A stretch of DNA of 64,000 bases. It comes from Botryllus schlosseri (lineage: Eukaryota). The notes under the pieces were generated by a model. It did not search any database, was not told where the DNA came from, and saw only the letters and a list, made by a program, of their open reading frames with translations. The position numbers and the translations under genes were made by a program. Below, piece after piece: positions 1 through 38,581 of this stretch (position 1 is its first letter; the number at the start of each line of letters is the position of its first letter). Location of the stretch: contig CM119372.1 of assembly GCA_051294905.1 (NCBI GenBank), positions 28,770,001 to 28,834,000 of the forward strand, given 5' to 3'.

Positions 1-1091
1 ACCTATGTGATTCGACAACTGGGTTAGCGCGGTGTTGTTCTACTGATCGAGGTGTGAAAATTGTGCTATCGCGATGAAGTTGTGACTGTGAACAGCAGAC
101 TATTCTGTAGGCGCGAAACAGCGAATAAGCCGAAAGTATTATTCAGGTAGCAATCAATAGCGAAAGAGAACACGATCGGTCATCTGGTACGACTAAACTA
201 CATCATATATCATAATTTACGATCAAACTATTTCACACTGACTGGTCTAGTGTAATAATCGATAGTAGCACACAGCTGGCCGGGAAATAATTCAGCGCGC
301 AGGTCATTCGGAATATAGGTCGCACGCACTGCTTAATCCTCTTGTAAGCCACGTTTCCGTTTGTGCGGTTATTGTTGGTGACTATTCAACACCACGCGAG
401 AGATGGTTGAAAGTGCGAATCACGACCGCACCCATAAGAACACATGGCGAGTCACCACATACCGCGTAAGAATACATGGCACCTCACCGCCGCGGCCTAT
501 ATCCACAACGTTAGTTCACTACGACACAAGAATCCGTGGGCACATCATCGCCACAGCATATATCTGAAAGGGTACCATCATCACCACATAGGCACCTCAT
601 CACCGCATCCATAAGAACACATGGCACCTCACCGCCGAGAGGGGGTCTAAAAGGGTGCCATCACCACCACGAGTTTTCACGGCACCTCACCGCCGCAGCC
701 TATACCCGAAAGGGTGCCGTCACCAGAGATACCATAAGAAACAATGGCACATCACCAGAGATCCCATAAGAACCAATCGCACATCACGAGAGACCGCGTA
801 AGAAACAATGACACATCACCAGAGATCCCATAAGAACCATTGGTACATCACGAGCGATAGGGGGTCTGGGGTCTGAAAGGGTACCATCATCACTACGAGT
901 TTTCACGGCAGGTCATGAGTGAGCCCTATACCTGAAAGGGTGGGGTCACCAGAGATCCCATAAGAAACAATGGCAAGTCACCAGCGATAGGGGGTCTACA
1001 AGGGTGTGGTCACCAACACGAGTTTTCGCGGCAAGTCACGAGCGGGCCCATAAGAACCCCAGCCAGGTCACGACCGATCCTATATACTACT
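1..1091. mobile_element. Right end of a Polinton/Maverick-type DNA element (truncated by window start), related to 19666-33341
   Basis: Ends ...CTATATACTACT (reverse complement AGTAGTATATAG). 278-440 is closely similar to 32871-33030 and it carries the same CCCATAAGAA/TCACC subterminal repeats. Followed by GTCGGC and Tx1 ORF1-like sequence; left end and TSD are outside the window. Confidence 0.7.
420..1080 (+). repeat. Degenerate subterminal repeats (TCACCAGAGATCCCATAAGAA-like and GAAAGGGT(A/G)CCATCACC modules)
   Basis: CATAAGAA, TCACC and AAAGGGT motifs recur many times at roughly 42-bp spacing. Confidence 0.8.
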
Positions 1092-6513: not shown

Positions 6514-6530
6514 TTCCATCCAACCATACT

Positions 6531-14199: not shown

Positions 14200-15026
14200 T
14201 TCCATCCAACCATACTGATTAAATAGCTCACAGTGCATGAAAAAGAATTCGTGGCCAGCGGCTCTCGTAACGACACTCACTTACATGCATTTTCGCAAAG
14301 CCGCTGATTATTATAAATATACCAAATACTTGGTTTGTTGATTTATTTTCCCCCTCGGAACAAACGTGGCCATATAACACGTTTTGAGTTGGCCTACACC
14401 TCGATTTGTTCTCGTAGACCTGCGATATAGCAATGGCGTCTGACTTTTACATCGTTATAGTGTCAGTTTCTGGGTAAGATTTCACGATTAGCGGTTAGTA
14501 GGCCTTTTCCGTATAGTGCGAGCCTAATTTCTTTTTCACCTAGCTCTCCTGAACTGATCATATACACTTCATGTATTTTGATAAGCGCATGGATTGTGGC
14601 GCGAATTGATGACAGTCGGCAGATCAGAAATTAATCTACAATAGGCTTTCCCTATATGCCTCGCTTTTGTAGCTGTGAAAACTTTGCATTGCTATGTCAC
14701 GCTTCTGTAATCCTATACCGGCTCTTTATTGGCAAAGCTAATATCAGAGCACCATGGAGATGACCATAAAACGCAAGATAATGATTATCGCACTTTTAAG
14801 CAAGGAATGGACGGTGGAATTCGCAATTGGACGCCGCAGTCAGTCCAATATCATCGATGACGTCCCAATCATATTCGGCGTTCGCGTCTAGTAGAAACTA
14901 TTTCATTTTGCTTCGGCGATTCAAAGCGCACTTGGTGAATGCATTTATGCATATGTGGAGAGCGTGCTCACCACAATATTTATTTTGTTGTATGAAATTG
15001 GGTGTCAATAAATTTCTGGAAAAGTC

Positions 15027-15203
15027 ATACTTACCTGACGAGGCAGTGAACCATGATCAAAAAGGCGGTTCTGCCCGGGCGAGGCCTAGCCATTGCACTT
15101 CGGCTTGGTCGACTTCGGCTTGGTTGACCTCGGCGATTACCCCAAATGTGGGTAACTCGGTCGTGTGATTTCTGGTAGTGGGGTCTGCGTTCGCGCTAAC
15201 CCT
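15027..15203 (+). ncRNA. RNU1: U1 snRNA variant with 15-nt duplication in the 3' strand of stem-loop II
   Basis: CTTCGGCTTGGTCGA CTTCGGCTTGGTTGA; 177 nt. Confidence 0.88.
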
Positions 15204-16039
15204 TTCCATCCAACCATACTGATTAAATAGCTCACAGTGCATGAAAAAGAATTCGTGGCCAGCGGCTCTCGTAACGACACTCACTTACATGCATTTTCGC
15301 AAAGCCGCTGATTATTATAAATATACAAAATACTTGGTTTGTTGATTTATTTTCCCCCTCGGAACGAACGTGGCCATATAACACGTTTTGAGTTGGCCTA
15401 CACCTCGATTTGTTCTCGTAGACCTGCGATATAGCAATGGAGTCTGACCTTTACATCGTTATAGTGTCTGTTTCTGGGTAAGATTTCACGATTAGCGGTT
15501 AGTAGGCCTTTTCCGTATAGTGCGAGCCTAATTTCTTTTTCACCTAGCTCTCCTGAACTGATCATATACACTTCATGTATTTCGATAAGCGCCTGGATTG
15601 TGGTGAGAATTGATGACAGTCGGCAGATCAGAAATTAATCTACAATAGGCTTTCCCTATATGCCTCGCTTTTGTAGCTGTGAAAACTTTGCATTGCTATG
15701 TCACGCTTCTGTAATCCTATACCGGCTCTTTATTGGCAAAGCGAATATCAGAGCACCATGGAGATGACCATAAAACGCAAGATAATGATTATCGCACTTT
15801 TAAGCAAGGAATGGACGGTGGAATTCGCAATTGGACGCCGCAGTCAGTCCAATATCATCGATGACGTCCCATTCGTCCCAATCATATTTGGCGTTCGCGT
15901 CTAGTAGAAACTATTTCATTTTGCTTCGGCGATTCAAAGCGCACTTGGTGAATGCATTTATGCATATGTGGAGAGCGTGCTCACCACAATACTTATTTTG
16001 TTGTATGAAATTGGGTGTCAATAAATTTCTGGAAAACTC

Positions 16040-16201
16040 ATACTTACCTGACGAGGCAGTGAACCATGATCAAAAAGGCGGTTCTGCCCGGGCGAGGCCT
16101 AGCCATTGCACTTCGGCTTGGTTGACCTCGGCGATTACCCCAAATGTGAGTAACTCGGTCGTGTGATTTCTGGTAGTGGGGTCTGCGTTCGCGCTAACCC
16201 T
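16040..16201 (+). ncRNA. RNU1: U1 snRNA (Sm site GATTTCTGG)
   Basis: Duplicate of the 14038 copy. Confidence 0.93.
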
Positions 16202-17028
16202 TTCCATCCAACCATACTGATTAAATAGCTCACAGTGCATGAAAAAGAATTCGTGGCCAGCGGCTCTCGTAACGACACTCACTTACATGCATTTTCGCAA
16301 AGCCGCTGATTATTATAAATATACCAAATACTTGGTTTGTTGATTTATTTTCCCCCTCGGAACAAACGTGGCCATATAACACGTTTTGAGTTGGCCTACA
16401 CCTCGATTTGTTCTCGTAGACCTGCGATATAGCAATGGCGTCTGACTTTTACATCGTTATAGTGTCAGTTTCTGGGTAAGATTTCACGATTAGCGGTTAG
16501 TAGGCCTTTTCCGTATAGTGCGAGCCTAATTTCTTTTTCACCTAGCTCTCCTGAACTGATCATATACACTTCATGTATTTTGATAAGCGCATGGATTGTG
16601 GCGCGAATTGATGACAGTCGGCAGATCAGAAATTAATCTACAATAGGCTTTCCCTATATGCCTCGCTTTTGTAGCTGTGAAAACTTTGCATTGCTATGTC
16701 ACGCTTCTGTAATCCTATACCGGCTCTTTATTGGCAAAGCTAATATCAGAGCACCATGGAGATGACCATAAAACGCAAGATAATGATTATCGCACTTTTA
16801 AGCAAGGAATGGACGGTGGAATTCGCAATTGGACGCCGCAGTCAGTCCAATATCATCGATGACGTCCCAATCATATTCGGCGTTCGCGTCTAGTAGAAAC
16901 TATTTCATTTTGCTTCGGCGATTCAAAGCGCACTTGGTGAATGCATTTATGCATATGTGGAGAGCGTGCTCACCACAATATTTATTTTGTTGTATGAAAT
17001 TGGGTGTCAATAAATTTCTGGAAAAGTC

Positions 17029-17205
17029 ATACTTACCTGACGAGGCAGTGAACCATGATCAAAAAGGCGGTTCTGCCCGGGCGAGGCCTAGCCATTGCAC
17101 TTCGGCTTGGTCGACTTCGGCTTGGTTGACCTCGGCGATTACCCCAAATGTGGGTAACTCGGTCGTGTGATTTCTGGTAGTGGGGTCTGCGTTCGCGCTA
17201 ACCCT
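17029..17205 (+). ncRNA. RNU1: U1 snRNA variant with 15-nt duplication
   Basis: Duplicate of the 15027 copy. Confidence 0.88.
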
Positions 17206-18041
17206 TTCCATCCAACCATACTGATTAAATAGCTCACAGTGCATGAAAAAGAATTCGTGGCCAGCGGCTCTCGTAACGACACTCACTTACATGCATTTTC
17301 GCAAAGCCGCTGATTATTATAAATATACAAAATACTTGGTTTGTTGATTTATTTTCCCCCTCGGAACGAACGTGGCCATATAACACGTTTTGAGTTGGCC
17401 TACACCTCGATTTGTTCTCGTAGACCTGCGATATAGCAATGGAGTCTGACCTTTACATCGTTATAGTGTCTGTTTCTGGGTAAGATTTCACGATTAGCGG
17501 TTAGTAGGCCTTTTCCGTATAGTGCGAGCCTAATTTCTTTTTCACCTAGCTCTCCTGAACTGATCATATACACTTCATGTATTTCGATAAGCGCCTGGAT
17601 TGTGGTGAGAATTGATGACAGTCGGCAGATCAGAAATTAATCTACAATAGGCTTTCCCTATATGCCTCGCTTTTGTAGCTGTGAAAACTTTGCATTGCTA
17701 TGTCACGCTTCTGTAATCCTATACCGGCTCTTTATTGGCAAAGCGAATATCAGAGCACCATGGAGATGACCATAAAACGCAAGATAATGATTATCGCACT
17801 TTTAAGCAAGGAATGGACGGTGGAATTCGCAATTGGACGCCGCAGTCAGTCCAATATCATCGATGACGTCCCATTCGTCCCAATCATATTTGGCGTTCGC
17901 GTCTAGTAGAAACTATTTCATTTTGCTTCGGCGATTCAAAGCGCACTTGGTGAATGCATTTATGCATATGTGGAGAGCGTGCTCACCACAATATTTATTT
18001 TGTTGTATGAAATTGGGTGTCAATAAATTACTGGAAAACTC

Positions 18042-18203
18042 ATACTTACCTGACGAGGCAGTGAACCAAGATCAAAAAGGCGGTTCTGCCCGGGCGAGGC
18101 CTAGCCAATGCACTTCGGCTTGGTTGACCTCGGCGATTACCCCAAATGTGGGTAACTCGGTCGTGTAATTTCTGGTAGTGGGGTCTGCGTTCGCGCTAAC
18201 CCT
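18042..18203 (+). ncRNA. RNU1: U1 snRNA (substitutions CCAAGATC and AATGCAC)
   Basis: U1 motifs present; U1A loop has T>A. Confidence 0.9.
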
Positions 18204-19039
18204 TTCCATCCAACCATACTAGTTAAATAGCTCACAGTGCATGGAAAAGAATTCGTGGCCAGCGGCTCTCGTAACGACACTCACTTACATGCATTCTCGC
18301 AAAGCTGCTGATTATTATAAATATACCAAATACTTGGTTTGTTGATTTATTTTCCCCCTCGGAACGAACGTGGCCATATAACACGTTTTGAGTTGGCCTA
18401 CACCTCGATTTGTTCTCGTGGACCTGCGATATAGCAATGGCGTCTGACCTTTACATCGTTATAGTGTCTGTTTCTGGGTAAGATTTCACGATTAGCGGTT
18501 AGTAGGCCTTTTCCGTATAGTGCGAGCCTAATTTCTTTTTCACCTAGCTCTCCTGAACTGATCATATACACTTCATGTATTTCGATAAGCGCCTGGATTG
18601 TGGCGAGAATTGATGACAGTCGGCAGATCAGAAATTAATCTACAATAGGCTTTCCCTATATGCCTCGCTTTTGTAGCTGTGAAAACTTTGCATTGCTATG
18701 TCACGCTTCTGTAATCCTATACCGGCTCTTTATTGGCAAAGCGAATATCAGAGCACCATGGAGATGACCATAAAACGCAAGATAATGATTATCGCACTTT
18801 TAAGCAAGGAATGGACGGTGGAATTCGCAATTGGACGCCGCAGTCAGTCCAATATCATCGATGACGTCCCATTCGTCCCAATCATATTTGGCGTTCGCGT
18901 CTAGTAGAAACTATTTCATTTTGCTTCGGCGATTCAAAGCGCACTTGGTGAATGCATTTATGCATATGTGGAGAGCGTGCTCACCACAATATTTATTTTG
19001 TTGTATGAAATTGGGTGTCAATAAATTTCTGGAAAACTC

Positions 19040-19201
19040 ATACTTACCTGACGAGGCAGTGAACCATGATTAAAAAGGCGGTTCTGCCCGGGCGAGGCCT
19101 AGCCATTGCACTTCGGCTTGGTTGACCTCGGCGATTACCCCAAATGTGGGTAACTCGGTCGTGTAATTTCTGGTAGTGGGGTCTGCGTTCGCGCTAACCC
19201 T
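19040..19201 (+). ncRNA. RNU1: U1 snRNA (loop I GATCA>GATTA); last unit before the insertion stack
   Basis: U1 motifs present. Confidence 0.9.
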
Positions 19202-19665
19202 TTACATCCAACCATACTAGTTAAATAGCTCACAGTGCATGGAAAAGAATTCGTGATGATTGGAGTATTTGGTTGTATTAAGGTTGCAACCGCCCGTAAG
19301 TATCGACTAACGGCTATTTTCAGGTGATCCAGAGCCACTGTGGCAACTACCGTAAATAGCAGTAACTATTTAGAGTACCTAGTTTACCTTTTCACTTAGG
19401 TTAATTTCTCCTTCTTTCTCTTCATCGTCGTTGGATTTCCGTTATAAATATTATTATAAATATTATAAATATAAATATTCGAACCCATTGTTCGGAGACA
19501 CACAGACAACAATCACGCATCTGACGTAGGCAACTAAAAACAATAGGATTTAAGAATTTAACAGAGTGGTTCGGGAATTCCCGTAAATTTGAGGACTGGT
19601 AGCCGGAGCCTGAAGCAGCCCTGCCATTAATACGAACTGATATCTGTAAGAATACCAGAATCGGG

Positions 19666-22600
19666 AGTAGTTATATAGATCGCTCGTGATTTGCCTGGGG
19701 TTCTTATGGGCCCGCTGGTGAGGTGCCGCGAAACTCGTATTGGTGATGGCACCCTTTTGACCCCCCCTTCCGCTGGTGAGGTGCCATGTGTTCTTATGGG
19801 ATCTCTGGTGATGGTACCCTTTCGGGTATAGGCTTCGTCGGTGATGTGCCGTGAAAACTCGTGTTGGTGATTGCACCCTTTCAGACCCCCTATCGCTCGT
19901 GATGTGTCATTGTTTCTTACAAGATCTCTGGTGATGTGTCATTGGTTCTTATGAGATCTCTGGTGAGGTGCCATGTGTTCTTATGGATGCGGTCGTGATT
20001 CGCACTTTCAACCATCTCTCGCGGGGTGTTGAATAGTCACCAACAATAACCGCACAAACGGAAACGTGGCTTGCAAGAGGATTAAGCAGTGCGACCTATA
20101 TTTCGAATGACCTGCGCGCTGAATTGTTTCACGGCCAACCGCGGTGGTTGTGACTCGCCTTTTTTACTATAGGTGGTGACGGTGATTCGCCTGTCGTGTA
20201 TTCTTACGGGATCTGTGGTGACTCGCCATGTGTTCTTATGGGCGCGGTCGCATGCGGCTATTGCGTCTTATGGCGGGGGTGGTGAGCGGCTATTGATGCT
20301 AACACGAAACCCGGGGTGGCGAGCGGCACTTATTTCTTATGGCGGTGGGTCTTATTTCTTATGGGTGCGGTCGTGATTCGTACTTTCGGTATAGACTGCG
20401 GGCGGCATGTTGTACTTTCAGCAAAAAAGGTGTGAAATAGTTTGCCAAGTCTAGGAATCACTGGCAAGGTAATATTTTGGTATTTAGTTTACCACAGAGC
20501 CGGCGTAGACGGCGATTCGAATATCAACAATAACAACGCTCACGAATTAACACTTCAAATAGCTGTGAAATAGCTTGCAAAACCCCGCGATCGCTGACAA
20601 GATAATGTCTCGGTCATAACCATCTTTCACGACTTGGTGTCATAACCATACCGATCGCCCACGCGGTGAAATTTTAGTAATCAGTTTGAAACAGAACTTG
20701 ATATCGCTGGTAAGATTTAACAAGTAACGAATAACAGACCGCGGTAACTTGAATAGCGACAAATTGTCACTTATTTCCGCTCTAACCCTAATCCTTTGTG
20801 AAGTGAACGCTTATTCAAAAGGGTGTGATATAATTTTAAAATCCAACGACCACTCACCGGATAATGCTTCAGACATATAGCAATCTCTCATACCCACTCA
20901 CAAGGTAATATTTCGGTAATAAGTTTGTCACAGAGCCGTCGCAGCCGGTGATTCGAAAACCAACAATTTGTCACTCGCCCGCGATCGCTATATGTTTCAC
21001 GCCTCCAGAATAGTGGCTGACTTTAGTTGCGTGATAAGATCCATGAAAATATTCAATCAATGTGTTAGTTTATCAACTTGAAATGAAACTCACTACACAA
21101 AGCAAGTCGATTCGTATCTGAATGTTCTAAATCGGTACAACTCTAATCCTTTAACAAATCCCTTAACGCGTTTTTGTTGAATCGAACGTAACCCGAATAT
21201 TACTGACGCCGACTTTCAGCCGCATCGAATTATTCGCACATTCGCCGCTGTTTTCACACTTATAGAATCAATACCAACTATAACTCTACAAGAATCAAGA
21301 ATCACAAGTATGTGCATTACACAGTTATTGTCTTTATTAACTTGAAATCAAACACCTAACAAAAACACGCAACTAATCATTTGGCAACTCTAGCATTACC
21401 AAAAAATTCCAGTATTGTTGATTGAAAATCCTTGAGTCATTATTATCAAAAATGTTATAGTACCGCATCGGAATCCATTCGCGGGATGTACTAAAGGTAA
21501 ATCCAGATAATCCAAAATGAAATATTTGGACTTTGACAAACATGACTACTAACTTTGATCCAGTCACATTTCAAGATTATACTTTGAAACAATCCTTGAA
21601 ACTTACAACTCTATTCACGACTGAGTTTTCCGTTTGTCAGTTTCAGTAAATACTATCGCGATATTTTAAAGTGTTACTACACACAATAGAATCATTCAAT
21701 GAAATAGCACCTGTTGTAAATATTGTGACGCGATGACTTGTGACGCGATGAGTTAAATCGGAATATTTCAATCTATTTGTCGAAACCTTGAACAAGCTAT
21801 CGGGTTATTTTTTTTTTGTTGTAATCGAGTGAACGGAAATAGTATTACGTCTCAACATTTTAACATCTTCCCCTACACAAAAGAGTAAAATACAAAAAAC
21901 CTTGTCAAGTCAATCCGTTTGTAACTTACCCAACCAAAGCAAAAAGTATCCTTATGAAAAGTAGACAAGACTACGCGAGTAATCACCACAATCCAAAATC
22001 CATAGCAAGTTCGGTTGTATTCATAGTCCACCAACTCGTACTTTTATTCAACTGTAAAAGTCGTTACTATTCCGCAAGACAAAGAAATTACTATGTGGTA
22101 TATTTTGTAAGACAAAAGTAATTACTTCTCGGTGTCAGCGACTTGAGATTAACATATGTTTTGAGTATATGATATTTGAATGTCTGACCAACGTAGTTAA
22201 GAATTCATTTTATACGATCGAACACCGGTATTACATTGAAAGTTATCATGCTGTAAACATAAGGATTGACACATGGATTTGACATATGTAATAGTTGATC
22301 ATGACTTGATTATTAAATTATTCGCGTTAATTAGACCCGGCGTTGCGGTAAAGGTTATTATGACAGCAACAAACTTTTCACCGCCGTGGTTATTAACATA
22401 TTGATTTGTAAAACTATACTTGTATGAAATGTTCTTGGTTTGAAAGATATTCCGTGTTGGTACAAATCACTCTGTGTATTACGAATATCAGAAAATATTT
22501 TTACAAATGTAGTTGTTTCCAGTAACCAAGACTAAAGATGACACAACAATTTCGTTTGGAATATCTTTACTGGACGCATCCTATTCTACTAGACTTGAGT

Positions 22601-25600
22601 AATACACAAAACTCATAGCATTAACAAAATCGCAATAGGCGCTACACTGAAATCTACAAAATGTGTTTGTATTGTTACTCAAAGTAGTGATCATAAATTA
22701 TCATTTAAATAAGTAATACTAATCATAAAACCAAACTTGTGAAAGTCATTACCATAACAAAAGAATATTGTAGGTTGCTTGCTAAATGTATGCCGGAAAT
22801 ATTTGTAGAACGCTCACGACCAAAGAAATCGGAAATTTCTCCCCATTGTCATTCGTCAAAGTATATGTTGTCACAATACTCATCCCGTAAAAGATCTTAC
22901 TTGTATGTGATTGAATCGCCGGTAATCAACTCGCTAAATCAAACCATAAGGAAATTTCACTCAGTCATCGGATTATGATATTAAACAGCGTCGCTTAATC
23001 GGCATAGAGCGTTTTTCTAAATGCAAATCATACCTCACCAACAGAAAACAATTTTCACTCACCTCGTAATGAAACCAAGTGGTGGGCCTACGTTCAATAT
23101 TTTGTTTGTGTCAAATACTTTGCAATAAACACACACACTGGAGTGGTTGAGCTTTACATCATCAAGCTGTCATCTGTAAATCGAGATCACATCCGACTTG
23201 TAACTGTATCGTTTACCTAACCGAGTTGTATGCACAGTTTCATATTTTTTATCATTTAGTGATTGCTGAACATACCAAACGATACACATTCACTTCCGAA
23301 ATACTGCGTTGATCTCAATTCCCTTTGTCGTCATAACCGAAGTATCATTTGTTTCGAATTCGTAACAGCCGACTTTTCTATAACACGATAAATTTTGACA
23401 AGTTATGCTTAGAAGATTGGTTGCATATCGCGGAAAATAACATACTGCTCATATTGATACTGTTAATCGATATTTTCACGCGAGTCGATTTTCAAATGAG
23501 TAAAATTTATTACATGAGTTTCTCCGCTTAATGTAAATGAAAACTCAGTCGTCTTTTAACATCACATAGACATTGATAAAAAGTAAGTAAGCAATCAAAC
23601 ACAACACTTTGTACGACACTAATTATTGTTCCACACATCTCATTTCATACTAAGTGTATACGAAAGATATTCATGTTACACGAAAATATTCGCTCATGCT
23701 ACAAACCTGTACAATGATTGGTGGTGTAAGTCCAGCACAATTGTGGTATCCATACGAGTTTAGTTAACACAATTTACGACACCGAGGTCGCCTCATCTTT
23801 CGTAAGACAACAAACCAAGGCTTCAGGATATGTCCATGTCATAACAATAAATCAACTACTCCAACAACAGAGTACATATGTTTTCTAGCACGGTGCTTAC
23901 ATCTTACACACAAATCAACCTACTTTGCTAACGAAAAGCGCTGAGTCATCACATGGTTGTCCTCACAACAATACAACTAAAACATACTATCATACAAAAT
24001 GGCCGTTATAGTTTGCACACCAACGATACATCGTACAAGTAGCAAGTCTCGAGAATCCAGTTATTCAAAAAACGTGAAAGTGTTTCTACGCCAAGTCGGT
24101 ATGTTGACGAAAGCATATATTGTAATATCATGATCGATTTACAATCGTTGGTCACAAAATGTCACTACTCTAAATAATTATTTTTCACTCAAAGCCTACT
24201 TGTCACCATTCGTTTCATCAAGCACGAGTTCAAGAAACCTGCTGCGACATGAATTGTTATTTTTATGTTGTGTAAATAGGTAATAATTAATTTTAGTAAC
24301 ACTATATCAACATCATCGAGTTGCGCGAATAGATTTACATGTGGTCTTGTGGTTTTAATCGAAGTATACAGCACGGTCTAATGTAGAGTCATCTCTACTG
24401 TACAGCAACTCGGTAATCGAAATGCATTAAAATTTAAACAACGATCTTGTTTCGTCGCACCAAAAATATGTTTACTATCGCGATACTCTGCACAGGCCGT
24501 GTAAATCCTTTTCACACTCGTAATAGTATACCAACAGCTACCGGCGACAACGTTTAACAATACCAACAACACTAAACATGCGATACCTACCCAAGTAAAA
24601 TTACCATTTTCACCTAGAGGTCGGTCGTTACCCGAGTAGAAATACCATTGTCCTTTGGAGATTTATCGTTTACCCAGTGTAACAAACCCCTTTTCCTTTG
24701 GAAATATATTTTTTCTCTGGGTAACAAACCTTTTTCACTTGGAAATATATTTTTTCTCTGGGTAACAAACCTTTTTCACTTGGAAATATATTTTTTCTCT
24801 GGTTAACAAACCTTTTTCACTTGGAAATATATTTTTTCTCTGGTTAACAAACCTTTTTCACTTGGAAATATATTTTTTCTCTGGGTAACAAACCTTTTTC
24901 ACTTGGAAATATATTTTTTCTCTGGTTAACAAACCTTTTTCACTTGGAAATATATTTTTTCTCTGGGTAACAAACCTTTTTCACTTGGAAATATATTTTT
25001 TCCCCGGCTAACAAACCTTTTTCCCTGAGCAACAAACCATTTTCACTTGGTGGTCCGTCGTTTACCCGAGTAAAAATATCATTTTCTTTTGGAGATCCGG
25101 CGTTTACCCAGTGTAACAATACATTTTCACTTGGAAAAATACTTTTACCTAGAGTAACTAATCATTTTCTCCTGGGTAACAAACCCTTTTCGTCTGGAAA
25201 CTATCATTTACCTGAGTACCAATACCGTTTTCACTTGGAAATCTATCTTTTCCCTGGGTAACAATACCATTTTCGTTTTGAAAACTGACAACCACACCGG
25301 TCAATTTGATATTTTTTGTATATTGTTACAACAGACAGCGACAAAATATACACCAACAACGACTCCGATACATTTGTCTAATCAAATATTCACTTGCTTT
25401 GATGCATCCCATCAAAATCATTGGTTACTCACATACAATAACAATGTGCTGCTGTACATCGACATGTATGTTTTCGGAATTGGTGAATAAAGGGGTTTCC
25501 GATATGTCCGTGATGTCCGGGTTCGTGCTTTGGATTTTCCAGAGTCAAAATGTCTGAATAAATCACCTCCTCGACTTTGGTAACTGGTTGATACACGGAT

Positions 25601-26014
25601 AATGGTGTTTGGAAAACGGATGAATTTATGTTCCCCATCGCGCTGACAACATCGGGTTACTTGTGAGTTTCCTCGGGTCTGTTTACTATATTGTGTCTTT
25701 ACTGGTCAATACATGTCGCTCCAGTCAGCCGAAACCGGATCACTAATATGAGAAAGTGTGGGGGCCGGATCCGGATATTCACTCATGACCCAACGACCGA
25801 TATTCAAGTAAACATGTTACAGACCGTGTTTTGTCTCCATGAAAAATACCTATGCATACACCATCACATCAAGTACGTCACGATTGTTCACAAGTATTTG
25901 CGTAAACGAGGTGTATGTACAATGTGTCGATGCACAAACATCATGGGACACAAATTCACGTTCTCAAGTCTCATCATGCGCCGACTCTGTACATTCAATG
26001 TGGGCATAGATGAC
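19666..26014 (+). repeat. Left arm of giant inverted repeat
   Basis: ORF track mirrored exactly on the opposite strand (coordinate sums 53004/53007). Confidence 0.97.
24681..25020 (+). repeat. 41-bp minisatellite (~8 near-perfect copies; degenerate copies extend over ~24585-25280)
   Basis: AACAAACCTTTTTCACTTGGAAATATATTTTTTCTCTGG(G/T)T at 24723, 24764, 24805 and onward. Confidence 0.93.
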
Positions 26015-26065
26015 ACACGACATGATACAATGGATAGTGCATTATGCATACCGATATATTCTCAG

Positions 26066-26341
26066 TCAAATATGCGACCCATACACAACCATATACCCTG
26101 ATTTTCGCTGAATATCCACAACACCAACAAATCTGTACATTTCTTTTCCCTTGACCTCAACGATAGAGTTGTCATCCCAATGTACCAATCGAGTGTATGG
26201 TTCATCAGGTGTAAAATCCAAATCAAATGTCACCAAGGTATCGTTTTTCATTTTCAATATTTCCACCGCTGCATCTTGTCTGTGTCGTAAAACCACGGTG
26301 TGAGGCCAGAGGAATCTATGGAACGTTACGCGTAATCCCAT
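26066..26341 (-). CDS. Hypothetical 91-aa ORF in the unique spacer
   Basis: ATG start, protein-like composition, same orientation as 26762-27313; no family recognised. Confidence 0.25.
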   Translation of the reverse strand: MGLRVTFHRFLWPHTVVLRHRQDAAVEILKMKNDTLVTFDLDFTPDEPYTRLVHWDDNSIVEVKGKEMYRFVGVVDIQRKSGYMVVYGSHI

Positions 26342-26761
26342 AATTACTCGTGGATATAGTCGGGTAACGACAACGTTTTCTCAGTGGTCTGCGTGGGTGC
26401 ACCGTTTCAATACGTAGCTGGATCAACTAGACCAAAAGTTTCCAACCACGTTTTATAACGGCATGTAGAATTACGAGACAGCACCCTCTTGCGGAGTGGT
26501 TAACACGAAATCAGTCTTCAACCCACAGAGACACACCTTGGATTACATTATCTAATCGTATTCGAACTCGAGATTCACACACACACAGAGTCCCTGTTTA
26601 CGATTTCAATCCGGAGTCACTGCTCACGATGTTTAGCTGGAGTCGTTGTGTGGGAGTAGCAACATCGGGCATATTCATCACCTGCAAGATTGATAACGAT
26701 GGTGATCGCCAAATACCGAAAACCAGGTGAAACACTGCGGTCTCAGCAAAAAGTTCGCAGG

Positions 26762-27313
26762 TTAGGACGAACAATACGTGGAGGGATTGAGCGAGTTACG
26801 CAACCCGATTATGTCGAAGTCTGGATCACGATACAAGTCTACCTGAGAATCCGAACAATCTTGCAAAATCAAGGTGTGAACCCGTGAAAGGGCTGTACTC
26901 GTGTGAGATTTATTTTTCACAAGTTGGGTGGAGGTCGGTTCATACAAAGACCATGTTACGTCCAAATATGACCGCTTGCCTGTCTCCAAGTCATCTATGC
27001 CCACATTGAATGTACAGAGTCGGCGCATGATGAGACTTGAGAACGTGAATTTGTGTCCCATGATGTTTGTGCATCGACACATTGTACATACACCTCGTTT
27101 ACGCAAATACTTGTGAACAATCGTGACGTACTTGATGTGATGGTGTATGCATAGGTATTTTTCATGGAGACAAAACACGGTCTGTAACATGTTTACTTGA
27201 ATATCGGTCGTTGGGTCATGAGTGAATATCCGGATCCGGCCCCCACACTTTCTCATATTAGTGATCCGGTTTCGGCTGACTGGAGCGACATGTATTGACC
27301 AGTAAAGACACAA
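26762..27313 (-). CDS. Hypothetical 183-aa ORF crossing the arm/spacer junction (possible remnant gene)
   Basis: Longest ORF in the palindromic element; no recognisable motif; non-ATG start in the track. Confidence 0.25.
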   Translation of the reverse strand: MCLYWSIHVAPVSRNRITNMRKCGGRIRIFTHDPTTDIQVNMLQTVFCLHEKYLCIHHHIKYVTIVHKYLRKRGVCTMCRCTNIMGHKFTFSSLIMRRLCTFNVGIDDLETGKRSYLDVTWSLYEPTSTQLVKNKSHTSTALSRVHTLILQDCSDSQVDLYRDPDFDIIGLRNSLNPSTYCSS

Positions 27314-30300
27314 TATAGTAAACAGACCCGAGGAAACTCACAAGTAACCCGATGTTGTCAGCGCGATGGGGAACATAAATTCATCCGTTTTCCAAACACC
27401 ATTATCCGTGTATCAACCAGTTACCAAAGTCGAGGAGGTGATTTATTCAGACATTTTGACTCTGGAAAATCCAAAGCACGAACCCGGACATCACGGACAT
27501 ATCGGAAACCCCTTTATTCACCAATTCCGAAAACATACATGTCGATGTACAGCAGCACATTGTTATTGTATGTGAGTAACCAATGATTTTGATGGGATGC
27601 ATCAAAGCAAGTGAATATTTGATTAGACAAATGTATCGGAGTCGTTGTTGGTGTATATTTTGTCGCTGTCTGTTGTAACAATATACAAAAAATATCAAAT
27701 TGACCGGTGTGGTTGTCAGTTTTCAAAACGAAAATGGTATTGTTACCCAGGGAAAAGATAGATTTCCAAGTGAAAACGGTATTGGTACTCAGGTAAATGA
27801 TAGTTTCCAGACGAAAAGGGTTTGTTACCCAGGAGAAAATGATTAGTTACTCTAGGTAAAAGTATTTTTCCAAGTGAAAATGTATTGTTACACTGGGTAA
27901 ACGCCGGATCTCCAAAAGAAAATGATATTTTTACTCGGGTAAACGACGGACCACCAAGTGAAAATGGTTTGTTGCTCAGGGAAAAAGGTTTGTTAGCCGG
28001 GGAAAAAATATATTTCCAAGTGAAAAAGGTTTGTTACCCAGAGAAAAAATATATTTCCAAGTGAAAAAGGTTTGTTAACCAGAGAAAAAATATATTTCCA
28101 AGTGAAAAAGGTTTGTTACCCAGAGAAAAAATATATTTCCAAGTGAAAAAGGTTTGTTAACCAGAGAAAAAATATATTTCCAAGTGAAAAAGGTTTGTTA
28201 ACCAGAGAAAAAATATATTTCCAAGTGAAAAAGGTTTGTTACCCAGAGAAAAAATATATTTCCAAGTGAAAAAGGTTTGTTACCCAGAGAAAAAATATAT
28301 TTCCAAAGGAAAAGGGGTTTGTTACACTGGGTAAACGATAAATCTCCAAAGGACAATGGTATTTCTACTCGGGTAACGACCGACCTCTAGGTGAAAATGG
28401 TAATTTTACTTGGGTAGGTATCGCATGTTTAGTGTTGTTGGTATTGTTAAACGTTGTCGCCGGTAGCTGTTGGTATACTATTACGAGTGTGAAAAGGATT
28501 TACACGGCCTGTGCAGAGTATCGCGATAGTAAACATATTTTTGGTGCGACGAAACAAGATCGTTGTTTAAATTTTAATGCATTTCGATTACCGAGTTGCT
28601 GTACAGTAGAGATGACTCTACATTAGACCGTGCTGTATACTTCGATTAAAACCACAAGACCACATGTAAATCTATTCGCGCAACTCGATGATGTTGATAT
28701 AGTGTTACTAAAATTAATTATTACCTATTTACACAACATAAAAATAACAATTCATGTCGCAGCAGGTTTCTTGAACTCGTGCTTGATGAAACGAATGGTG
28801 ACAAGTAGGCTTTGAGTGAAAAATAATTATTTAGAGTAGTGACATTTTGTGACCAACGATTGTAAATCGATCATGATATTACAATATATGCTTTCGTCAA
28901 CATACCGACTTGGCGTAGAAACACTTTCACGTTTTTTGAATAACTGGATTCTCGAGACTTGCTACTTGTACGATGTATCGTTGGTGTGCAAACTATAACG
29001 GCCATTTTGTATGATAGTATGTTTTAGTTGTATTGTTGTGAGGACAACCATGTGATGACTCAGCGCTTTTCGTTAGCAAAGTAGGTTGATTTGTGTGTAA
29101 GATGTAAGCACCGTGCTAGAAAACATATGTACTCTGTTGTTGGAGTAGTTGATTTATTGTTATGACATGGACATATCCTGAAGCCTTGGTTTGTTGTCTT
29201 ACGAAAGATGAGGCGACCTCGGTGTCGTAAATTGTGTTAACTAAACTCGTATGGATACCACAATTGTGCTGGACTTACACCACCAATCATTGTACAGGTT
29301 TGTAGCATGAGCGAATATTTTCGTGTAACATGAATATCTTTCGTATACACTTAGTATGAAATGAGATGTGTGGAACAATAATTAGTGTCGTACAAAGTGT
29401 TGTGTTTGATTGCTTACTTACTTTTTATCAATGTCTATGTGATGTTAAAAGACGACTGAGTTTTCATTTACATTAAGCGGAGAAACTCATGTAATAAATT
29501 TTACTCATTTGAAAATCGACTCGCGTGAAAATATCGATTAACAGTATCAATATGAGCAGTATGTTATTTTCCGCGATATGCAACCAATCTTCTAAGCATA
29601 ACTTGTCAAAATTTATCGTGTTATAGAAAAGTCGGCTGTTACGAATTCGAAACAAATGATACTTCGGTTATGACGACAAAGGGAATTGAGATCAACGCAG
29701 TATTTCGGAAGTGAATGTGTATCGTTTGGTATGTTCAGCAATCACTAAATGATAAAAAATATGAAACTGTGCATACAACTCGGTTAGGTAAACGATACAG
29801 TTACAAGTCGGATGTGATCTCGATTTACAGATGACAGCTTGATGATGTAAAGCTCAACCACTCCAGTGTGTGTGTTTATTGCAAAGTATTTGACACAAAC
29901 AAAATATTGAACGTAGGCCCACCACTTGGTTTCATTACGAGGTGAGTGAAAATTGTTTTCTGTTGGTGAGGTATGATTTGCATTTAGAAAAACGCTCTAT
30001 GCCGATTAAGCGACGCTGTTTAATATCATAATCCGATGACTGAGTGAAATTTCCTTATGGTTTGATTTAGCGAGTTGATTACCGGCGATTCAATCACATA
30101 CAAGTAAGATCTTTTACGGGATGAGTATTGTGACAACATATACTTTGACGAATGACAATGGGGAGAAATTTCCGATTTCTTTGGTCGTGAGCGTTCTACA
30201 AATATTTCCGGCATACATTTAGCAAGCAACCTACAATATTCTTTTGTTATGGTAATGACTTTCACAAGTTTGGTTTTATGATTAGTATTACTTATTTAAA

Positions 30301-33300
30301 TGATAATTTATGATCACTACTTTGAGTAACAATACAAACACATTTTGTAGATTTCAGTGTAGCGCCTATTGCGATTTTGTTAATGCTATGAGTTTTGTGT
30401 ATTACTCAAGTCTAGTAGAATAGGATGCGTCCAGTAAAGATATTCCAAACGAAATTGTTGTGTCATCTTTAGTCTTGGTTACTGGAAACAACTACATTTG
30501 TAAAAATATTTTCTGATATCCGTAATACACAGAGTGATTTGTACCAACACGGAATATCTTTCAAACCAAGAACATTTCATACAAGTATAGTTTTACAAAT
30601 CAATATGTTAATAACCACGGCGGTGAAAAGTTTGTTGCTGTCATAATAACCTTTACCGCAACGCCGGGTCTAATTAACGCGAATAATTTAATAATCAAGT
30701 CATGATCAACTATTACATATGTCAAATCCATGTGTCAATCCTTATGTTTACAGCATGATAACTTTCAATGTAATACCGGTGTTCGATCGTATAAAATGAA
30801 TTCTTAACTACGTTGGTCAGACATTCAAATATCATATACTCAAAACATATGTTAATCTCAAGTCGCTGACACCGAGAAGTAATTACTTTTGTCTTACAAA
30901 ATATACCACATAGTAATTTCTTTGTCTTGCGGAATAGTAACGACTTTTACAGTTGAATAAAAGTACGAGTTGGTGGACTATGAATACAACCGAACTTGCT
31001 ATGGATTTTGGATTGTGGTGATTACTCGCGTAGTCTTGTCTACTTTTCATAAGGATACTTTTTGCTTTGGTTGGGTAAGTTACAAACGGATTGACTTGAC
31101 AAGGTTTTTTGTATTTTACTCTTTTGTGTAGGGGAAGATGTTAAAATGTTGAGACGTAATACTATTTCCGTTCACTCGATTACAACAAAAAAAAAAAAAT
31201 AACCCGATAGCTTGTTCAAGGTTTCGACAAATAGATTGAAATATTCCGATTTAACTCATCGCGTCACAAGTCATCGCGTCACAATATTTACAACAGGTGC
31301 TATTTCATTGAATGATTCTATTGTGTGTAGTAACACTTTAAAATATCGCGATAGTATTTACTGAAACTGACAAACGGAAAACTCAGTCGTGAATAGAGTT
31401 GTAAGTTTCAAGGATTGTTTCAAAGTATAATCTTGAAATGTGACTGGATCAAAGTTAGTAGTCATGTTTGTCAAAGTCCAAATATTTCATTTTGGATTAT
31501 CTGGATTTACCTTTAGTACATCCCGCGAATGGATTCCGATGCGGTACTATAACATTTTTGATAATAATGACTCAAGGATTTTCAATCAACAATACTGGAA
31601 TTTTTTGGTAATGCTAGAGTTGCCAAATGATTAGTTGCGTGTTTTTGTTAGGTGTTTGATTTCAAGTTAATAAAGACAATAACTGTGTAATGCACATACT
31701 TGTGATTCTTGATTCTTGTAGAGTTATAGTTGGTATTGATTCTATAAGTGTGAAAACAGCGGCGAATGTGCGAATAATTCGATGCGGCTGAAAGTCGGCG
31801 TCAGTAATATTCGGGTTACGCTCGATTCAACAAAAACGCGTTAAGGGATTTGTTAAAGGATTAGAGTTGTACCGATTTAGAACATTCAGATACGAATCGA
31901 CTTGCTTTGTGTAGTGAGTTTCATTTCAAGTTGATAAACTAACACATTGATTGAATATTTTCATGGATCTTATCACGCAACTAAAGTCAGCCACTATTCT
32001 GGAGGCGTGAAACATATAGCGATCGCGGGCGAGTGACAAATTGTTGGTTTTCGAATCACCGGCTGCGACGGCTCTGTGACAAACTTATTACCGAAATATT
32101 ACCTTGTGAGTGGGTATGAGAGATTGCTATATGTCTGAAGCATTATCCGGTGAGTGGTCGTTGGATTTTAAAATTATATCACACCCTTTTGAATAAGCGT
32201 TCACTTCACAAAGGATTAGGGTTAGAGCGGAAATAAGTGACAATTTGTCGCTATTCAAGTTACCGCGGTCTGTTATTCGTTACTTGTTAAATCTTACCAG
32301 CGATATCAAGTTCTGTTTCAAACTGATTACTAAAATTTCACCGCGTGGGCGATCGGTATGGTTATGACACCAAGTCGTGAAAGATGGTTATGACCGAGAC
32401 ATTATCTTGTCAGCGATCGCGGGGTTTTGCAAGCTATTTCACAGCTATTTGAAGTGTTAATTCGTGAGCGTTGTTATTGTTGATATTCGAATCGCCGTCT
32501 ACGCCGGCTCTGTGGTAAACTAAATACCAAAATATTACCTTGCCAGTGATTCCTAGACTTGGCAAACTATTTCACACCTTTTTTGCTGAAAGTACAACAT
32601 GCCGCCCGCAGTCTATACCGAAAGTACGAATCACGACCGCACCCATAAGAAATAAGACCCACCGCCATAAGAAATAAGTGCCGCTCGCCACCCCGGGTTT
32701 CGTGTTAGCATCAATAGCCGCTCACCACCCCCGCCATAAGACGCAATAGCCGCATGCGACCGCGCCCATAAGAACACATGGCGAGTCACCACAGATCCCG
32801 TAAGAATACACGACAGGCGAATCACCGTCACCACCTATAGTAAAAAAGGCGAGTCACAACCACCGCGGTTGGCCGTGAAACAATTCAGCGCGCAGGTCAT
32901 TCGAAATATAGGTCGCACTGCTTAATCCTCTTGCAAGCCACGTTTCCGTTTGTGCGGTTATTGTTGGTGACTATTCAACACCCCGCGAGAGATGGTTGAA
33001 AGTGCGAATCACGACCGCATCCATAAGAACACATGGCACCTCACCAGAGATCTCATAAGAACCAATGACACATCACCAGAGATCTCGTAAGAAACAATGA
33101 CACATCACGAGCGATAGGGGGTCTGAAAGGGTGCCATCACCAACACGAGTTTTCACGGCACATCACCGACGAAGCCTATACCCGAAAGGGTACCATCACC
33201 AGAGATCCCATAAGAACACATGGCACCTCACCAGCGGAAGGGGGGGTCAAAAGGGTGCCATCACCAATACGAGTTTCGCGGCACCTCACCAGCGGGCCCA

Positions 33301-33341
33301 TAAGAACCCCAGGCAAATCACGAGCGATCTATATAACTACT
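26990..33341 (-). repeat. Right arm of giant inverted repeat
   Basis: Reverse complement of 19666-26014 apart from a few substitutions and a 3-bp homopolymer length difference. Confidence 0.97.
27984..28323 (-). repeat. 41-bp minisatellite, mirror copy in the right arm
   Basis: Reverse complement of 24681-25020. Confidence 0.93.
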
Positions 33342-33396
33342 ATCGGGACCCTGACGTGTCCAGGCCACGGATAGAGAAACACACTAAATACTGAAA

Positions 33397-34515
33397 ATGG
33401 AGATTCAAAATGAGAACAGGCCGAGATCGCTTGATCTGGTAGTCAAAGAGATCAAAACGCAAGATGAAATAATGAAATGGCTTGAGACCCATGAGGTTTT
33501 GAAAAAATACACGAACGAATACGAATGCATCTTCCAAAATGGTAGCAAAACCTTTAACATCACTTTCAAACCGAACGGTGACGGACAAATTGAAACCAGA
33601 GAGGCATTCTACAACGAAGCCAAAAATAAATTGAGTAACGCCACACTTCAGGCGAAACTCTATTTTCCAAAGAAACCATGGAAATACATCAATGTGAGGG
33701 CCGTGCCGGCCGAAATTACCAACGAGGATTTTGAAAAATATCTGGAAACTTTCGATTGCGGTAAAATAAGAACTGTCACAGGTATGCACAACGGCTTTAG
33801 AAGAATTGCTATAGAAGACTACAAAAAAGGAAGCATTCCCCAATTCTTGAAAATAGGCACAACATACAGCAAAGTGTTCCTCCCATTTGATTTGGAAGAG
33901 AGATGCCAAAACTGCCTTGAAAGTGGGCACAAAGCAGATGATTGCGAGAACGAAGTAGTCTGCAGATATTGCCAGAAAACTGGTCACTACCAAACGCGAT
34001 GCCCGAAAAAAGAAACTGACTTTCCTTTGCTACAAAGGAAACCAGTAACAGAAAGGAACGACACAATTGAAAATAAGAATGAGAGAATGAACCAAATAGA
34101 CGAAACAGAGATTGAACAACCAGAGGAACAGAATGTAGTTGAAGAGACAGACACAGAAAGAGAAGTTTTGCAAGAGGAAAATAACAGAGAAAATGTAAAT
34201 AACGATAGGTACCTATCGTATAACAAACAAAACGAAGATTGCTATGAAGACCTGCATGACACACTAGTTAAAGCAGCTCTAGAATTGTCTTCCAGCTCGT
34301 CCGACACTGACGACGAAAAGAGAAATAGATCAAACAAGTCTCAAAAGAAGATCAATGACGAGACAGAAGATATGTCAGATGCAACAGAAAGGACACTGAA
34401 AAACAGAAACTCAGAAGACGAAGAAGCAGAAACAACAGGGAAGCCCCAACCAGACCCGGAAGGGAAACCCAAGAAAAAGAAGAAGAAAAAGAAAAAGGGC
34501 GAAAGAACGAAATAG
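33397..34515 (+). CDS. ORF1 (gag-like nucleic-acid-binding protein) of element B, two CCHC zinc knuckles
   Basis: CQNCLESGHKADDC and CRYCQKTGHYQTRC; acidic tail and poly-K; N-terminal NRPRSLD shared with ORF1 of C; intact 372 aa. Confidence 0.9.
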   Translation: MEIQNENRPRSLDLVVKEIKTQDEIMKWLETHEVLKKYTNEYECIFQNGSKTFNITFKPNGDGQIETREAFYNEAKNKLSNATLQAKLYFPKKPWKYINVRAVPAEITNEDFEKYLETFDCGKIRTVTGMHNGFRRIAIEDYKKGSIPQFLKIGTTYSKVFLPFDLEERCQNCLESGHKADDCENEVVCRYCQKTGHYQTRCPKKETDFPLLQRKPVTERNDTIENKNERMNQIDETEIEQPEEQNVVEETDTEREVLQEENNRENVNNDRYLSYNKQNEDCYEDLHDTLVKAALELSSSSSDTDDEKRNRSNKSQKKINDETEDMSDATERTLKNRNSEDEEAETTGKPQPDPEGKPKKKKKKKKKGERTK

Positions 34516-34535
34516 CAACTCCTAAAAACTCCAAG

Positions 34536-37500
34536 ATGAAGCTGTCAATCCTGTCGATAAACATAAACGGATTAGGGAAAAACTGGATAAAATTCAAGAC
34601 TCTGTTACTAAGAAACAAAAAGTACGATATAATTTGTCTACAGGAAACTCACAAATTAGATAAAAAACAACTCGAATCTCAGCTGTCACACTTAGATTAC
34701 ACTCTATTAGAAAACTGCCTTGACAAAACAGAAAAGAACGATCGTAATAAATTATACTTTCAAGGCACAGCCATAATTATTAGAAAACAGTTAGAAAATT
34801 ATACGTTGATGAAATCAGAAATAATTATCGAACACAGAGCACAGAAAATCGAAATTAAAGATGATCAACACATTATAGAGATCTGGAACATATACGCCCC
34901 CCCGAACCAGGGAAAGTATAAAACAGATTTCTACGACAGTTTGACGACAGCGATTGGGAAAACGGATGAGAGAAAGATCATATGCGGCGACTTCAATATG
35001 ATTAGTAGAGAAATAGATGCGAAAATTAAAACGAAACAGGGCTTGTCACCGGCAGGAAAGAAATGGAATGACACAATCAGACGATATAATTTGAGAGATA
35101 TTTTCAGAACGAGGAACCCCCAAAAAATCTTATATACAATGATCAGAAAACATCAAGAAAGAAGAATAGATCGCATATACTGCACAAAAAACATCGAACA
35201 AGAGATACACAAATTTGAATACAAAGTCAACACCATTTCGGATCACCTATACATGAGCACCTTACTACTAGTCAAACAGAAGAGACCCGCATGGGGGAAA
35301 GGGCATTGGAAAAATAATGTGAATTTATATAATGATAAAGAAATAAGACAAGAAATCAAAGAGACCTACCTGATCTATGCCGGACAAAAAGAAATCTTTG
35401 ATAGCATAGCAGGATAGTGGGATAAAATGAAAAGTAAGATCAAGCAGACACTGAAGAAGAGAGGAAAGAAACACAGAAAGGAAGTGTCGGAACGGAGATC
35501 TAAGATGGAAACTGAGCTGAGCCGAACCCTGACGAGCACAGAAAAACATCGAGATCTAATAGCAAAGATACGAGAATATGATAAGGAAGAAATTAAAAGA
35601 TTAAATAAGAGAGCTAGAGTCATGGATATAGAACATGATGAAAAACCAACAAAATACTTCTTCGACCGAATAAAAAGCGAAGAAAAACGTCAAAACATAG
35701 AAACACTCGAAAACAGTAACGGAGAGTTACTAATCGAGAAAAAAGAAATGATGGATGAGGTTAAAGAATTCTACAATGGGTTGTGGGAGAAAACCTCCAA
35801 TATTGATATGAGAATACAAGAAACCTTCAAAAAAGAAATTGAAGGTAGCCTATAGGAATTAGCGAAGAAAAACGAGCACATCTGAACGACACGATATCGG
35901 AAGATGAAATTCTGCTCGCGATTAAATCGATGAAAAATAATAGATCCCCCGGTACCGACGGGATCTCCATTGAATTCTATAAAACATTTTGGAACATGAT
36001 AAGAAAAGAACTTACCGAGGTAATGAACAACGCATACAGCTTCAATTCTACCTGCAACACATGGGAAGAGGGATTAGTAAAGCTAATTTACAAGAAAGGA
36101 AATCCTAGGCACATCAAAAATTACCGACCGATAACATTATTAAATACGGATTACAATATATTATCTAAAATACTAACCAGTAGAATGAAAAGCATACTAC
36201 CGGATATCATAGACAACACCCAAAAATGCAGCATTGACAAGAGAAGCATTTTTGATGCGGCACTTAATCTGAAATCTGCAATAGATTATTCCAGAAAGAA
36301 GGAGATACCGGCAGTGATAGGCAGCGTAGACCAGGAGAAAGCGTTTGATAGGGTCAATCATGACTACCTATTATCGCTAATAAAATCCTGGGATTTGGGA
36401 GAAAACTTCTACAATTATATCAAACATACATATAATAACGCTAGAAGTCGAATCCAAATCAACGGAGCGAAAACTAACTCGGTGAAAATAAAAAGAGGCA
36501 TTAGGCAAGGCTGCCCCATGAGCATGATGCTCTATGCAATGGCAACCGAACCATTAGCAAAGAAAATAATAAAAGACGAAGAAATTAGAGGAATTAGATT
36601 AGGCCAAGAAGTTTTGAAAATTCAGCAATACGCGGACGATTTAACGACGTTCACTCAATCGAAAAACTCACTTACTAAAATTATGAAACACCTGAAAGAT
36701 TTTGAGAAAGCAACGGGACAAAGCATTAACGAAGAAAAAACTCAACTACTGCCACTAACAAGAGCGGCAGGAATTGAGCTCAAAAACTCAGTATTCGAGA
36801 ATTTCACAAAAAATAGTATAAAGATATTGGGATATAAGTTTGGGAAGGATGAAAACAAAGAGTCGTGGAAAGAAAGAATAGATAAGATCGATAAAATAAT
36901 AAATATGTACAAAACAAGACGGCTGACTTGGATAGGAAAAATACAAATCCTGAAAAGTCTTGCAACGTCTCAGATACTCTACACTGCTAGAGTACATAGA
37001 CCTACCAATGAGAACATTAAAAAAATAGAGAGGAGTTTCTTCCAGTTCATGTATTATCCAGAAAAGATGGAAGTAATAGCTAGGAATCTCCTTATAAAAA
37101 GGAAACACGAAGGGGGACTGGCCATGCCATTCCCAAAATCGATCGTAGACACGTGCCAATTGATAAAAATTGAGGCCCTGTCGGAATTAGAAAACACATG
37201 CGAATTCTGGCATCAAGAAGCCTTATATCAATTAGGAACCAAAATTAAAGCCATCAACGCGGGACTGTACACAAACAGCATGCCGCATAATGATAGCCCA
37301 GATCAAGAATGGAGAAGAATAGTTGAAGACATGAAGAAAATACGATGGTCAACCGAACAATGGATGGACGCCACTTTCAAAAACCTGTACATGAGATGTA
37401 CAGAAAGTGTGGAGAAAAAATCACCATTCAGGCAAACGATGAAGTGGAAGGTATTGCAAGGAGAGGAGAGAGGACGTAATAACATACTTACCAACAAAGA

Positions 37501-37967
37501 GAAGATCATAAATTACAGACTAAATAACAAAGGATATATATTCGGCAAAGAAAAAAGAAGAAGAAATCTATGGAAAAGAAATGATATAACGTCTTGCAAG
37601 TTTTGCGGGAAAGATGAAGACGATATAGAACACGTCTTCACAAAATGTGCCTTCTCGCAAGAAGTCCTATGCAAGATGGAAAGCGAGAAAGGGATAAAAT
37701 TACCGAGAAGAGAAAAACTACTTTACAGCCAAAAAAAAAAAAAATATGAACCAAATAATTCTTATCACGATATTTAGGAAAGTGATCCTGAGAACAAAAC
37801 AAAAATGGGATATCGAAAACGTCTCAATGATTAACCGACAACACTGGACGGAAAAGACTGTAAAAGAAATTCTCAAAAAATACGACGACAGAATCGACTT
37901 GATTGAAAAGGTCGAACAAGAAAATACCTGGACGACCGACGAAGACGGACACACGATGACAAATTGA
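34536..37967 (+). pseudogene. ORF2 of element B (EN-RT-CCHC), disrupted
   Basis: CLQETH, GDFN, RRIDRIY, SDH, GIRQGCPMS, QYADD, CKFC..H..C. In-frame TAG at 35415 where A and C have W(W)D; frameshifts near 35855 and in the A-run at ~37735. Confidence 0.92.
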
Positions 37968-38169
37968 CGACGATGGTTGGAGACGAACGAGGCGAGTTGA
38001 ACGATGATGACGAGCATGGCGATGGAAATCTTGCAAGAATGATGATTTTGTGTATTTGTGTTTTTGCTTTTTTCACGCAATTTAATAACTTGTATTGAGA
38101 TTATATTTTGAATAAACTATGGTTGACTGTGGCCAACCACGATAAAAAAAAAATTTCCGTTTCACCTTC

Positions 38170-38390: not shown

Positions 38391-38581
38391 CCTTTCCTTC
38401 TCTCGCACCTCTCTCCTGAGGCGACGAGTGAACTTCTTTAACCTTAGCTCAGTTCGATTGTCTGACGTCAGCCGCCAGACATCGAACGATCCTCGCGCGT
38501 CTGCGAAACCGCGGTATCGATTTCTCGCTTGTCTGGAAACGCCTCGCTTTGAGTTCCATAGCAAGATAAAAACGCCACAAT

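Follow-up and report, generated by a model that had tools for sequence, protein, structure and literature searches.

The sequence analysed is a 64,000-nucleotide stretch of Botryllus schlosseri DNA (GenBank assembly GCA_051294905.1, contig CM119372.1, forward-strand positions 28,770,001 to 28,834,000), referred to here as the window and numbered from its first letter. It contains a 13,676 bp element that is almost wholly palindromic and has the ends of a Polinton/Maverick. The features of this element and of its surroundings are listed in Table 1. Comparison of the window with itself by BLAST gives a single long inverted match, 19666–26014 against 33341–26990, with 99.89% identity over 6352 columns, and the arms make up 92.9% of the element. 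Global alignment of the arms (6349 against 6352 bp) shows four substitutions, at 19872, 19921, 21186 and 22484, and a single indel, a 3 nt gap where a run of T10 stands against T13 (21808 / 31187). These are the differences that an earlier note on this DNA had reported, and its 975 bp spacer, end motifs, perfect duplication and inverted repeat share of 93% are likewise borne out. The element lacks nested insertions.

Table 1. Position and character of the palindromic element, its parts and its neighbours in the window (LINE, long interspersed nuclear element; ORF, open reading frame).
Feature	Position	Strand	Remarks
Left copy of the target-site duplication, ATCGGG	19660..19665	+	6 bp
Left arm	19666..26014	+	6349 bp; AGTAGT start; GC 47% over outer 1.3 kb and 35% in middle; no match to a protein family
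32 bp subterminal repeats	19892..19985 (mirror 33022–33115)	+	Within TTCTTATG / GGTGA(T/G)G motif cluster
41 bp minisatellite	24679..25023 (mirror 27981–28325)	+	8.4 copies, 96% matches
Central loop, unique sequence	26015..26989	.	975 bp; GC 44%
Intact 91-codon gene (predicted)	26066..26341	-	Unnamed family; predicted all-beta protein; five full-length relatives
TATAAAA, possible TATA box	26451..26457	-	110 nt upstream of loop gene ATG
Right arm	26990..33341	-	6352 bp; ACTACT end; reverse complement of left arm
Right copy of the target-site duplication, ATCGGG	33342..33347	+	6 bp
Left flank, non-U1	19256..19659	+	U1 unit matches end at 19255; probable 5' leader of LINE resuming at 33348
Right flank, Tx1/L1-like LINE	33397..37777	+	ORF1 (zinc knuckle) start 49 nt past duplication; endonuclease-reverse transcriptase ORF2 in pieces
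Second independent terminus	277..1091	-	ACTACT end at 1091; first ~470 bp of arm 75–89% alike, rest unrelated; other end outside window

The termini of the element, AGTAGT and ACTACT, contain the (AGT)2//(ACT)2 motif. Directly outside both of them is ATCGGG as a direct repeat, beyond which the sequences are unlike each other; this is one site, and the chance of a 6 bp flanking match at the composition of the window is 2.9e-4. Intact vertebrate Mavericks are 12.7–24.6 kb in length, with repeats of 46–1447 bp, 6 bp duplications and 5'-(AGT)2//(ACT)2-3' as their commonest ends (PMC8097293). Because the ends and the duplication match this commonest vertebrate motif, and because the window has another, diverged terminus with the same ending, the element is read as being of Polinton type, as had been proposed from its letters. 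Its insertion as a unit is also supported. The subterminal repeats of 32 bp are part of a cluster of TTCTTATG / GGTGA(T/G)G motifs that extends over approximately 19700–20360, and the repeats and the cluster are putative protein-binding sites.

Alternatively, arms of this kind might mark a foldback DNA transposon from a different superfamily, such as Galileo/FB or IS3EU/GingerRoot, whose movement depends on an ordinary transposase. Foldback elements typically have long inverted arms with internal repeats (PMC3573991), and their copies, like the present one, have little else; subterminal repeats and a minisatellite occur here, and IS3EU/GingerRoot elements likewise make 6 bp duplications (PMC10045372). 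This explanation is nevertheless improbable. The termini of IS3EU/GingerRoot are TA..TA or TG..CA (PMC10045372), whereas here they are AG..CT and both of the termini in the window end in (AGT)2. Galileo and FB are of the P-element superfamily, with 7 bp duplications rather than the 6 bp seen here, terminal inverted repeats (TIRs) of approximately 0.3–1.2 kb and another end motif (PMC3573991).

The palindrome could also be a fold-back chimera generated in the library or in the assembly. No spanning long read was seen, the run data consisting of short contigs and short reads, and an artefact would give arms sharing rare alleles just as a real palindrome does; polishing could raise the identity of the arms even in a real element. 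However, an artefact is unlikely because the (AGT)2 ends mark the exact limits of the symmetry, the 6 bp repeat is direct, and both of the joins between arm and loop recur in other data sets. The flanks are also unlike each other and the arms are not identical, and of the explanations considered here this is the one given least credence.

The genes that define an autonomous Polinton were sought in the arm and the loop. No Pfam family was found in any of the 18 six-frame pieces covering 19666–27101 with stops read through as X (E<=0.05), nor in any of the 19 stop-free frames (E<0.02), and none of 6 frames has a PHROG match. Since these scans are empty, the arm and loop appear to lack genes for polymerase, integrase, ATPase, protease and capsid, as had been claimed before, and no remnant of such a gene is recognisable. 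The longest stop-free frame of the arm plus loop has 144 codons, which is an ordinary length (P 0.37). A frame of 191 codons at 27337–26762 exceeds most of the nulls (P 0.027) and has no further support. The Vibrio repeat adhesin P0003 touches this frame with an E of 8.6e-5 summed over 7 repeats, a match that was judged to be due to chance.

A gene that was overlooked in the earlier note is present in the loop. With one loop frame as the query, 3 matches were obtained among 1.84 billion representatives, and one of them, P0001, aligns from start to stop with the 91-codon frame at 26341–26066 on the minus strand (75%). Profile searches yielded 5 of 38 candidates and then 6 of 174, one of these being the protein of the window itself. 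The five relatives are full length, with their starts and ends aligned, at identities of 75, 71, 67, 62 and 47%. In a neutral simulation with a matched number of changes approximately 75% of the runs acquired a stop, and against the stop-free runs P was 0.013–0.024 for equally conservative changes and 0.002–0.034 for multi-base changes, these values being for one sequence pair only and from databases that contain open frames only. From its sequence, the 91-codon frame is probably a real gene under conservation. The TATAAAA upstream, for which ~0.017 would be expected by chance per 150 nt and which was spotted post hoc, is only suggestive of a promoter element.

No Pfam family comes near its cut-off with the loop protein (one member reaches the best E, 0.009), and the protein's best match among PDB sequences has an E of 0.31. 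None of 54 candidates is a longer relative, and none of the pattern matches to the loop gene profile was confirmed, either in metagenome contigs (0 of 313) or in viral contigs (0 of 346). The AlphaFold models are all beta and poor, with predicted local distance difference test (pLDDT) values of 37 and 47, and a fold search with a low-confidence model gave 0 matches at E<=0.001. Matches to herpesvirus nuclear-egress proteins recurred and are not credible given the poor model. The atlas search gave no usable match; its top feature score of 0.78 and template modelling (TM) scores of at most 0.57 to AMIN-domain models are leads only. No RNA run that contains the stretch is among those listed, and the 199 reads of run X23, which are on both strands and of which 97% run on into unlike sequence, are too few to speak to expression.

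Part of the stretch is present in 20 of the 24 listed runs, from 9 studies and 2 organisms. Summed contig depth in run X1 over 19300–26989 is 107 in the flank bin, 23,000–44,000 in the pure loop bins and, the first 400 bp apart, 96,000–473,000 in the arm bins, depth not being copy number. This contrast between arm and flank shows an abundant, diverged family, of which the present copy is an ordinary, probably young member. The arm and loop are also covered along the whole element in runs X4 and X11. Run X4 differs from X1 in having 10–70 times more depth in the outer arm (19814–21355) and at the inner arm end (25211–25981) than in the middle of the arm, which may reflect relatives of shorter length or enrichment of the library.

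Both of the inner joins are found in relatives. The left arm-loop join is bridged by record 7 of run X1, a 96 nt contig at 25973–26068 in which 8 of the 96 letters differ. The right join is tracked on the plus strand by P0002, from a 1005 bp ENA contig of another assembly, which agrees at 60 of 70 residues in the loop part and at 53 of 65 in the arm part. P0002 is unlikely to be a real protein, a W standing opposite TGA, and serves only as a witness of DNA continuity. Since the joins are present in diverged relatives, both would predate the split from relatives that are several per cent apart. The fold-back itself probably happened once, in the ancestor of the family.

This age has a bearing on a further explanation, in which the element is a defective Polinton virus genome that was made by recent copy-back, or snap-back, at or just before its insertion, and that interferes with its parent. 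The arms are 99.9% alike, the length of 13.7 kb falls inside the 12.7–24.6 kb of intact vertebrate Mavericks (PMC8097293), and snap-back genomes are known in adeno-associated virus (AAV; PMC11575299), where the copy-back genomes are likewise self-complementary, have both ends of one type and depend on a helper. The AAV genomes arise afresh from a parent, however, whereas this is an inherited, integrated family with a conserved gene of its own. The inner joins occur in relatives ~8% apart in DNA and ~16% apart in protein, 7.4 kb of sequence holds no core gene remnant, and conservation of the loop gene extends to relatives of 47% identity, all of which makes a recent origin of this kind highly improbable. 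The fold-back derivative of the earlier note is therefore retained as regards its palindrome, its Polinton ends and its lack of core genes, and is given up as regards fresh copying back from the end of a parent, since the joins exist in diverged relatives. Together, the diverged joins, the absence of core gene remnants and the conserved loop gene favour a palindromic family that is old and inherited over a defective genome of recent origin.

The arms themselves are far nearer to each other than to the family, differing at 4 sites only (0.06%). Variants from the family were taken as the best 40 of 279 rows, chosen by support, of which 30 are arm sites. At 15 of these 30 listed arm sites, 90% or more of the depth in X1 carries the other letter, and in 14 of these cases the rare letter is present in both arms. 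The 14 family-rare alleles that are common to both arms point to a recent homogenisation of the arms. Of the four positions at which the arms differ, three (19872, 19921 and 22484) have the letter of the relatives on the right and a derived letter on the left; the polarity of the difference at 21186 could not be set, and the 4 differences are too few for a clock.

Long chromosomal palindromes undergo gene conversion, as on the human Y. The same Polinton-dependent family could therefore exist without any hairpin copying, with conversion between the arms in the chromosome preserving their likeness. This is the main rival to the explanation favoured below, and is a rather unlikely one. It accounts equally well for the 14 shared rare alleles, and the three sites at which the right arm agrees with the relatives fit drift after the insertion. 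Against it, the perfect duplication and the lack of nested insertions would suggest that the insertion is young and has had few opportunities for repeated mutation and conversion, and the boundary of the arms appears to be conserved among diverged relatives.

Comparison with known systems places the element close to the Polintons. It has in common with autonomous Polinton/Mavericks the (AGT)2//(ACT)2 ends, the 6 bp duplication, the terminal inverted repeats and a length within their range. It differs from them in its 6.35 kb arms, which are longer than the ~50–1500 bp of their TIRs, the general range for Polinton TIRs being 100–1500 bp (10.1101/2023.08.22.554363), and in having a single orphan gene in the loop without core genes. 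On this showing the element is not an autonomous Polinton, and appears to behave like a non-autonomous one: Polinton ends and footprint, no core genes and many related sequences are all found. The letter N in Polinton family names marks non-autonomous families. One such is the zebrafish Polinton-1N1_DR (PMC9341505), likened here by name only, as being of Polinton type and presumably moved by helper enzymes. Butterfly polintons have gene-bearing TIRs of ~2 kb and mobile derivatives without polB (10.1101/2025.02.07.637071), and thus also show expanded inverted repeats and mobility despite loss of the polymerase. Their repeats contain capsid and protease genes, whereas the arms described here are 3 times longer, cover 93% of the element and have no recognisable gene. 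No account of a Polinton derivative that is palindromic over nearly its whole length emerged from the literature search, which did not reach the founding Polinton paper, Repbase entries and supplements.

The explanation that we favour, and hold to be probable, is that the element is a non-autonomous satellite that is copied and inserted by a complete Polinton of the same host, with one arm being re-made from the other in the course of copying. The helper would provide a protein-primed polymerase and an integrase. Its polymerase would start at the (AGT)2 ends and displace one strand, which could then fold into a 6.35 kb stem with a 1 kb loop. This would be an extreme form of the racket-shaped intermediate that has been proposed for Polinton replication, as summarised in PMC4196379. 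Extension or mismatch repair inside the stem would restore the identity of the arms, and the helper integrase would insert the duplex and leave the 6 bp duplication. The loop gene product may, at a guess, be an accessory protein by which the satellite promotes its own copying or packaging. A stronger version, which is put forward tentatively and considered doubtful, is that this is an old, independent lineage of polintovirus hairpin satellites, a set of integrated replicons that is copied through the single-strand stem of 6 kb, travels in helper particles and exploits its helper by means of a selected gene of its own.

Several observations weigh against copying as a satellite through a hairpin. 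In the short contigs and short reads of the DNA runs, no read or contig crosses either outer junction, the two inner joins are never on one molecule, and a change of strand is seen in 0 of the 15 joints listed out of 194. The depth of the loop is 5–10 times below that of the arm in X1 and X11, where a uniform family would give a 2-fold difference; many members of the family therefore have other loops or none. The relatives of the loop gene may not all lie within palindromes. The flank allele at 19632 of the present insertion is apparently absent from X1. The arm sites used to infer homogenisation were selected by support, assembly polishing could have inflated the identity of the arms, and either polishing or chromosomal gene conversion would also yield shared rare alleles. 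Nor was an autonomous partner with these ends found in metagenome or viral contigs: the terminal motif has 0 matches in the former and 2 in the latter, and these two, in contigs of phages for which BLAST shows no similarity to the window, are attributable to chance.

The window as a whole is a tandem array of U1 small nuclear RNA genes, with 26 Rfam matches, that is broken by LINEs. The array occupies 5352–19203 and 45228–64000, with a unit of ~1.0 kb and higher-order repeats of 2.85 and 4.7 kb. The LINEs have a zinc-knuckle ORF1 and an endonuclease-reverse transcriptase ORF2, and are probably Tx1/L1-like, judging from this gene layout and from the target preferences of the clade, those of Tx1 being known (PMC4494074). 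The palindromic element lies 410 bp beyond the last match to the U1 unit and 49 bp ahead of the start of ORF1, and because of these two distances the insertion site is most likely the 5' leader of the LINE. The second terminus, at 277–1091, abuts a truncated LINE at 1092. As it has only ~470 bp in common with the arm, it would represent another subfamily, or possibly an autonomous element lying before the window.

Other features of the array concern the LINEs and the U1 units. At 5377–5378 a Tx1-like LINE ends in a poly(A) tail that runs straight into a U1 gene, approximately 25 nt from the start of that gene; this U1 copy is without its 5' end, and the LINE may be U1-targeting. A 27 kb block of stacked LINEs at 19256–45227 splits one U1 unit a short way downstream of its gene, with ~33 nt of the split unit repeated imperfectly on either side (19223–19255 and 45228–45262). 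LINE copies of differing sequence have a common 3' tail, GGAGAGCCGT followed by poly(A), at 5340–5377, 43794–43850, 44933–44987 and 45164–45227. The leader of the next LINE, at 38150–38420, contains repeated short palindromes of the GACTC..GAGTC type. Nine of the U1 units (9741–10612 and eight more) carry an 872 bp insert with GCGGGCCGG motifs, at 98.8–100% identity, which was probably spread by amplification of the array; its end recalls hAT-type elements.

Replication of Polintons is known from models and not from observation. An abundant family in which the two arms of 6 kb remain alike as its members diverge makes the fold-back step testable from genomes alone, through the comparison of paired alleles at and after insertion. 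If the lineage of hairpin satellites is true, its paired alleles on the two arms would preserve in the genome a trace of the racket intermediate, which has never been observed. Palindromes of this kind collapse in short-read assemblies and may therefore be widely overlooked. The conserved loop gene suggests that the element is a satellite with a function of its own, rather than debris.

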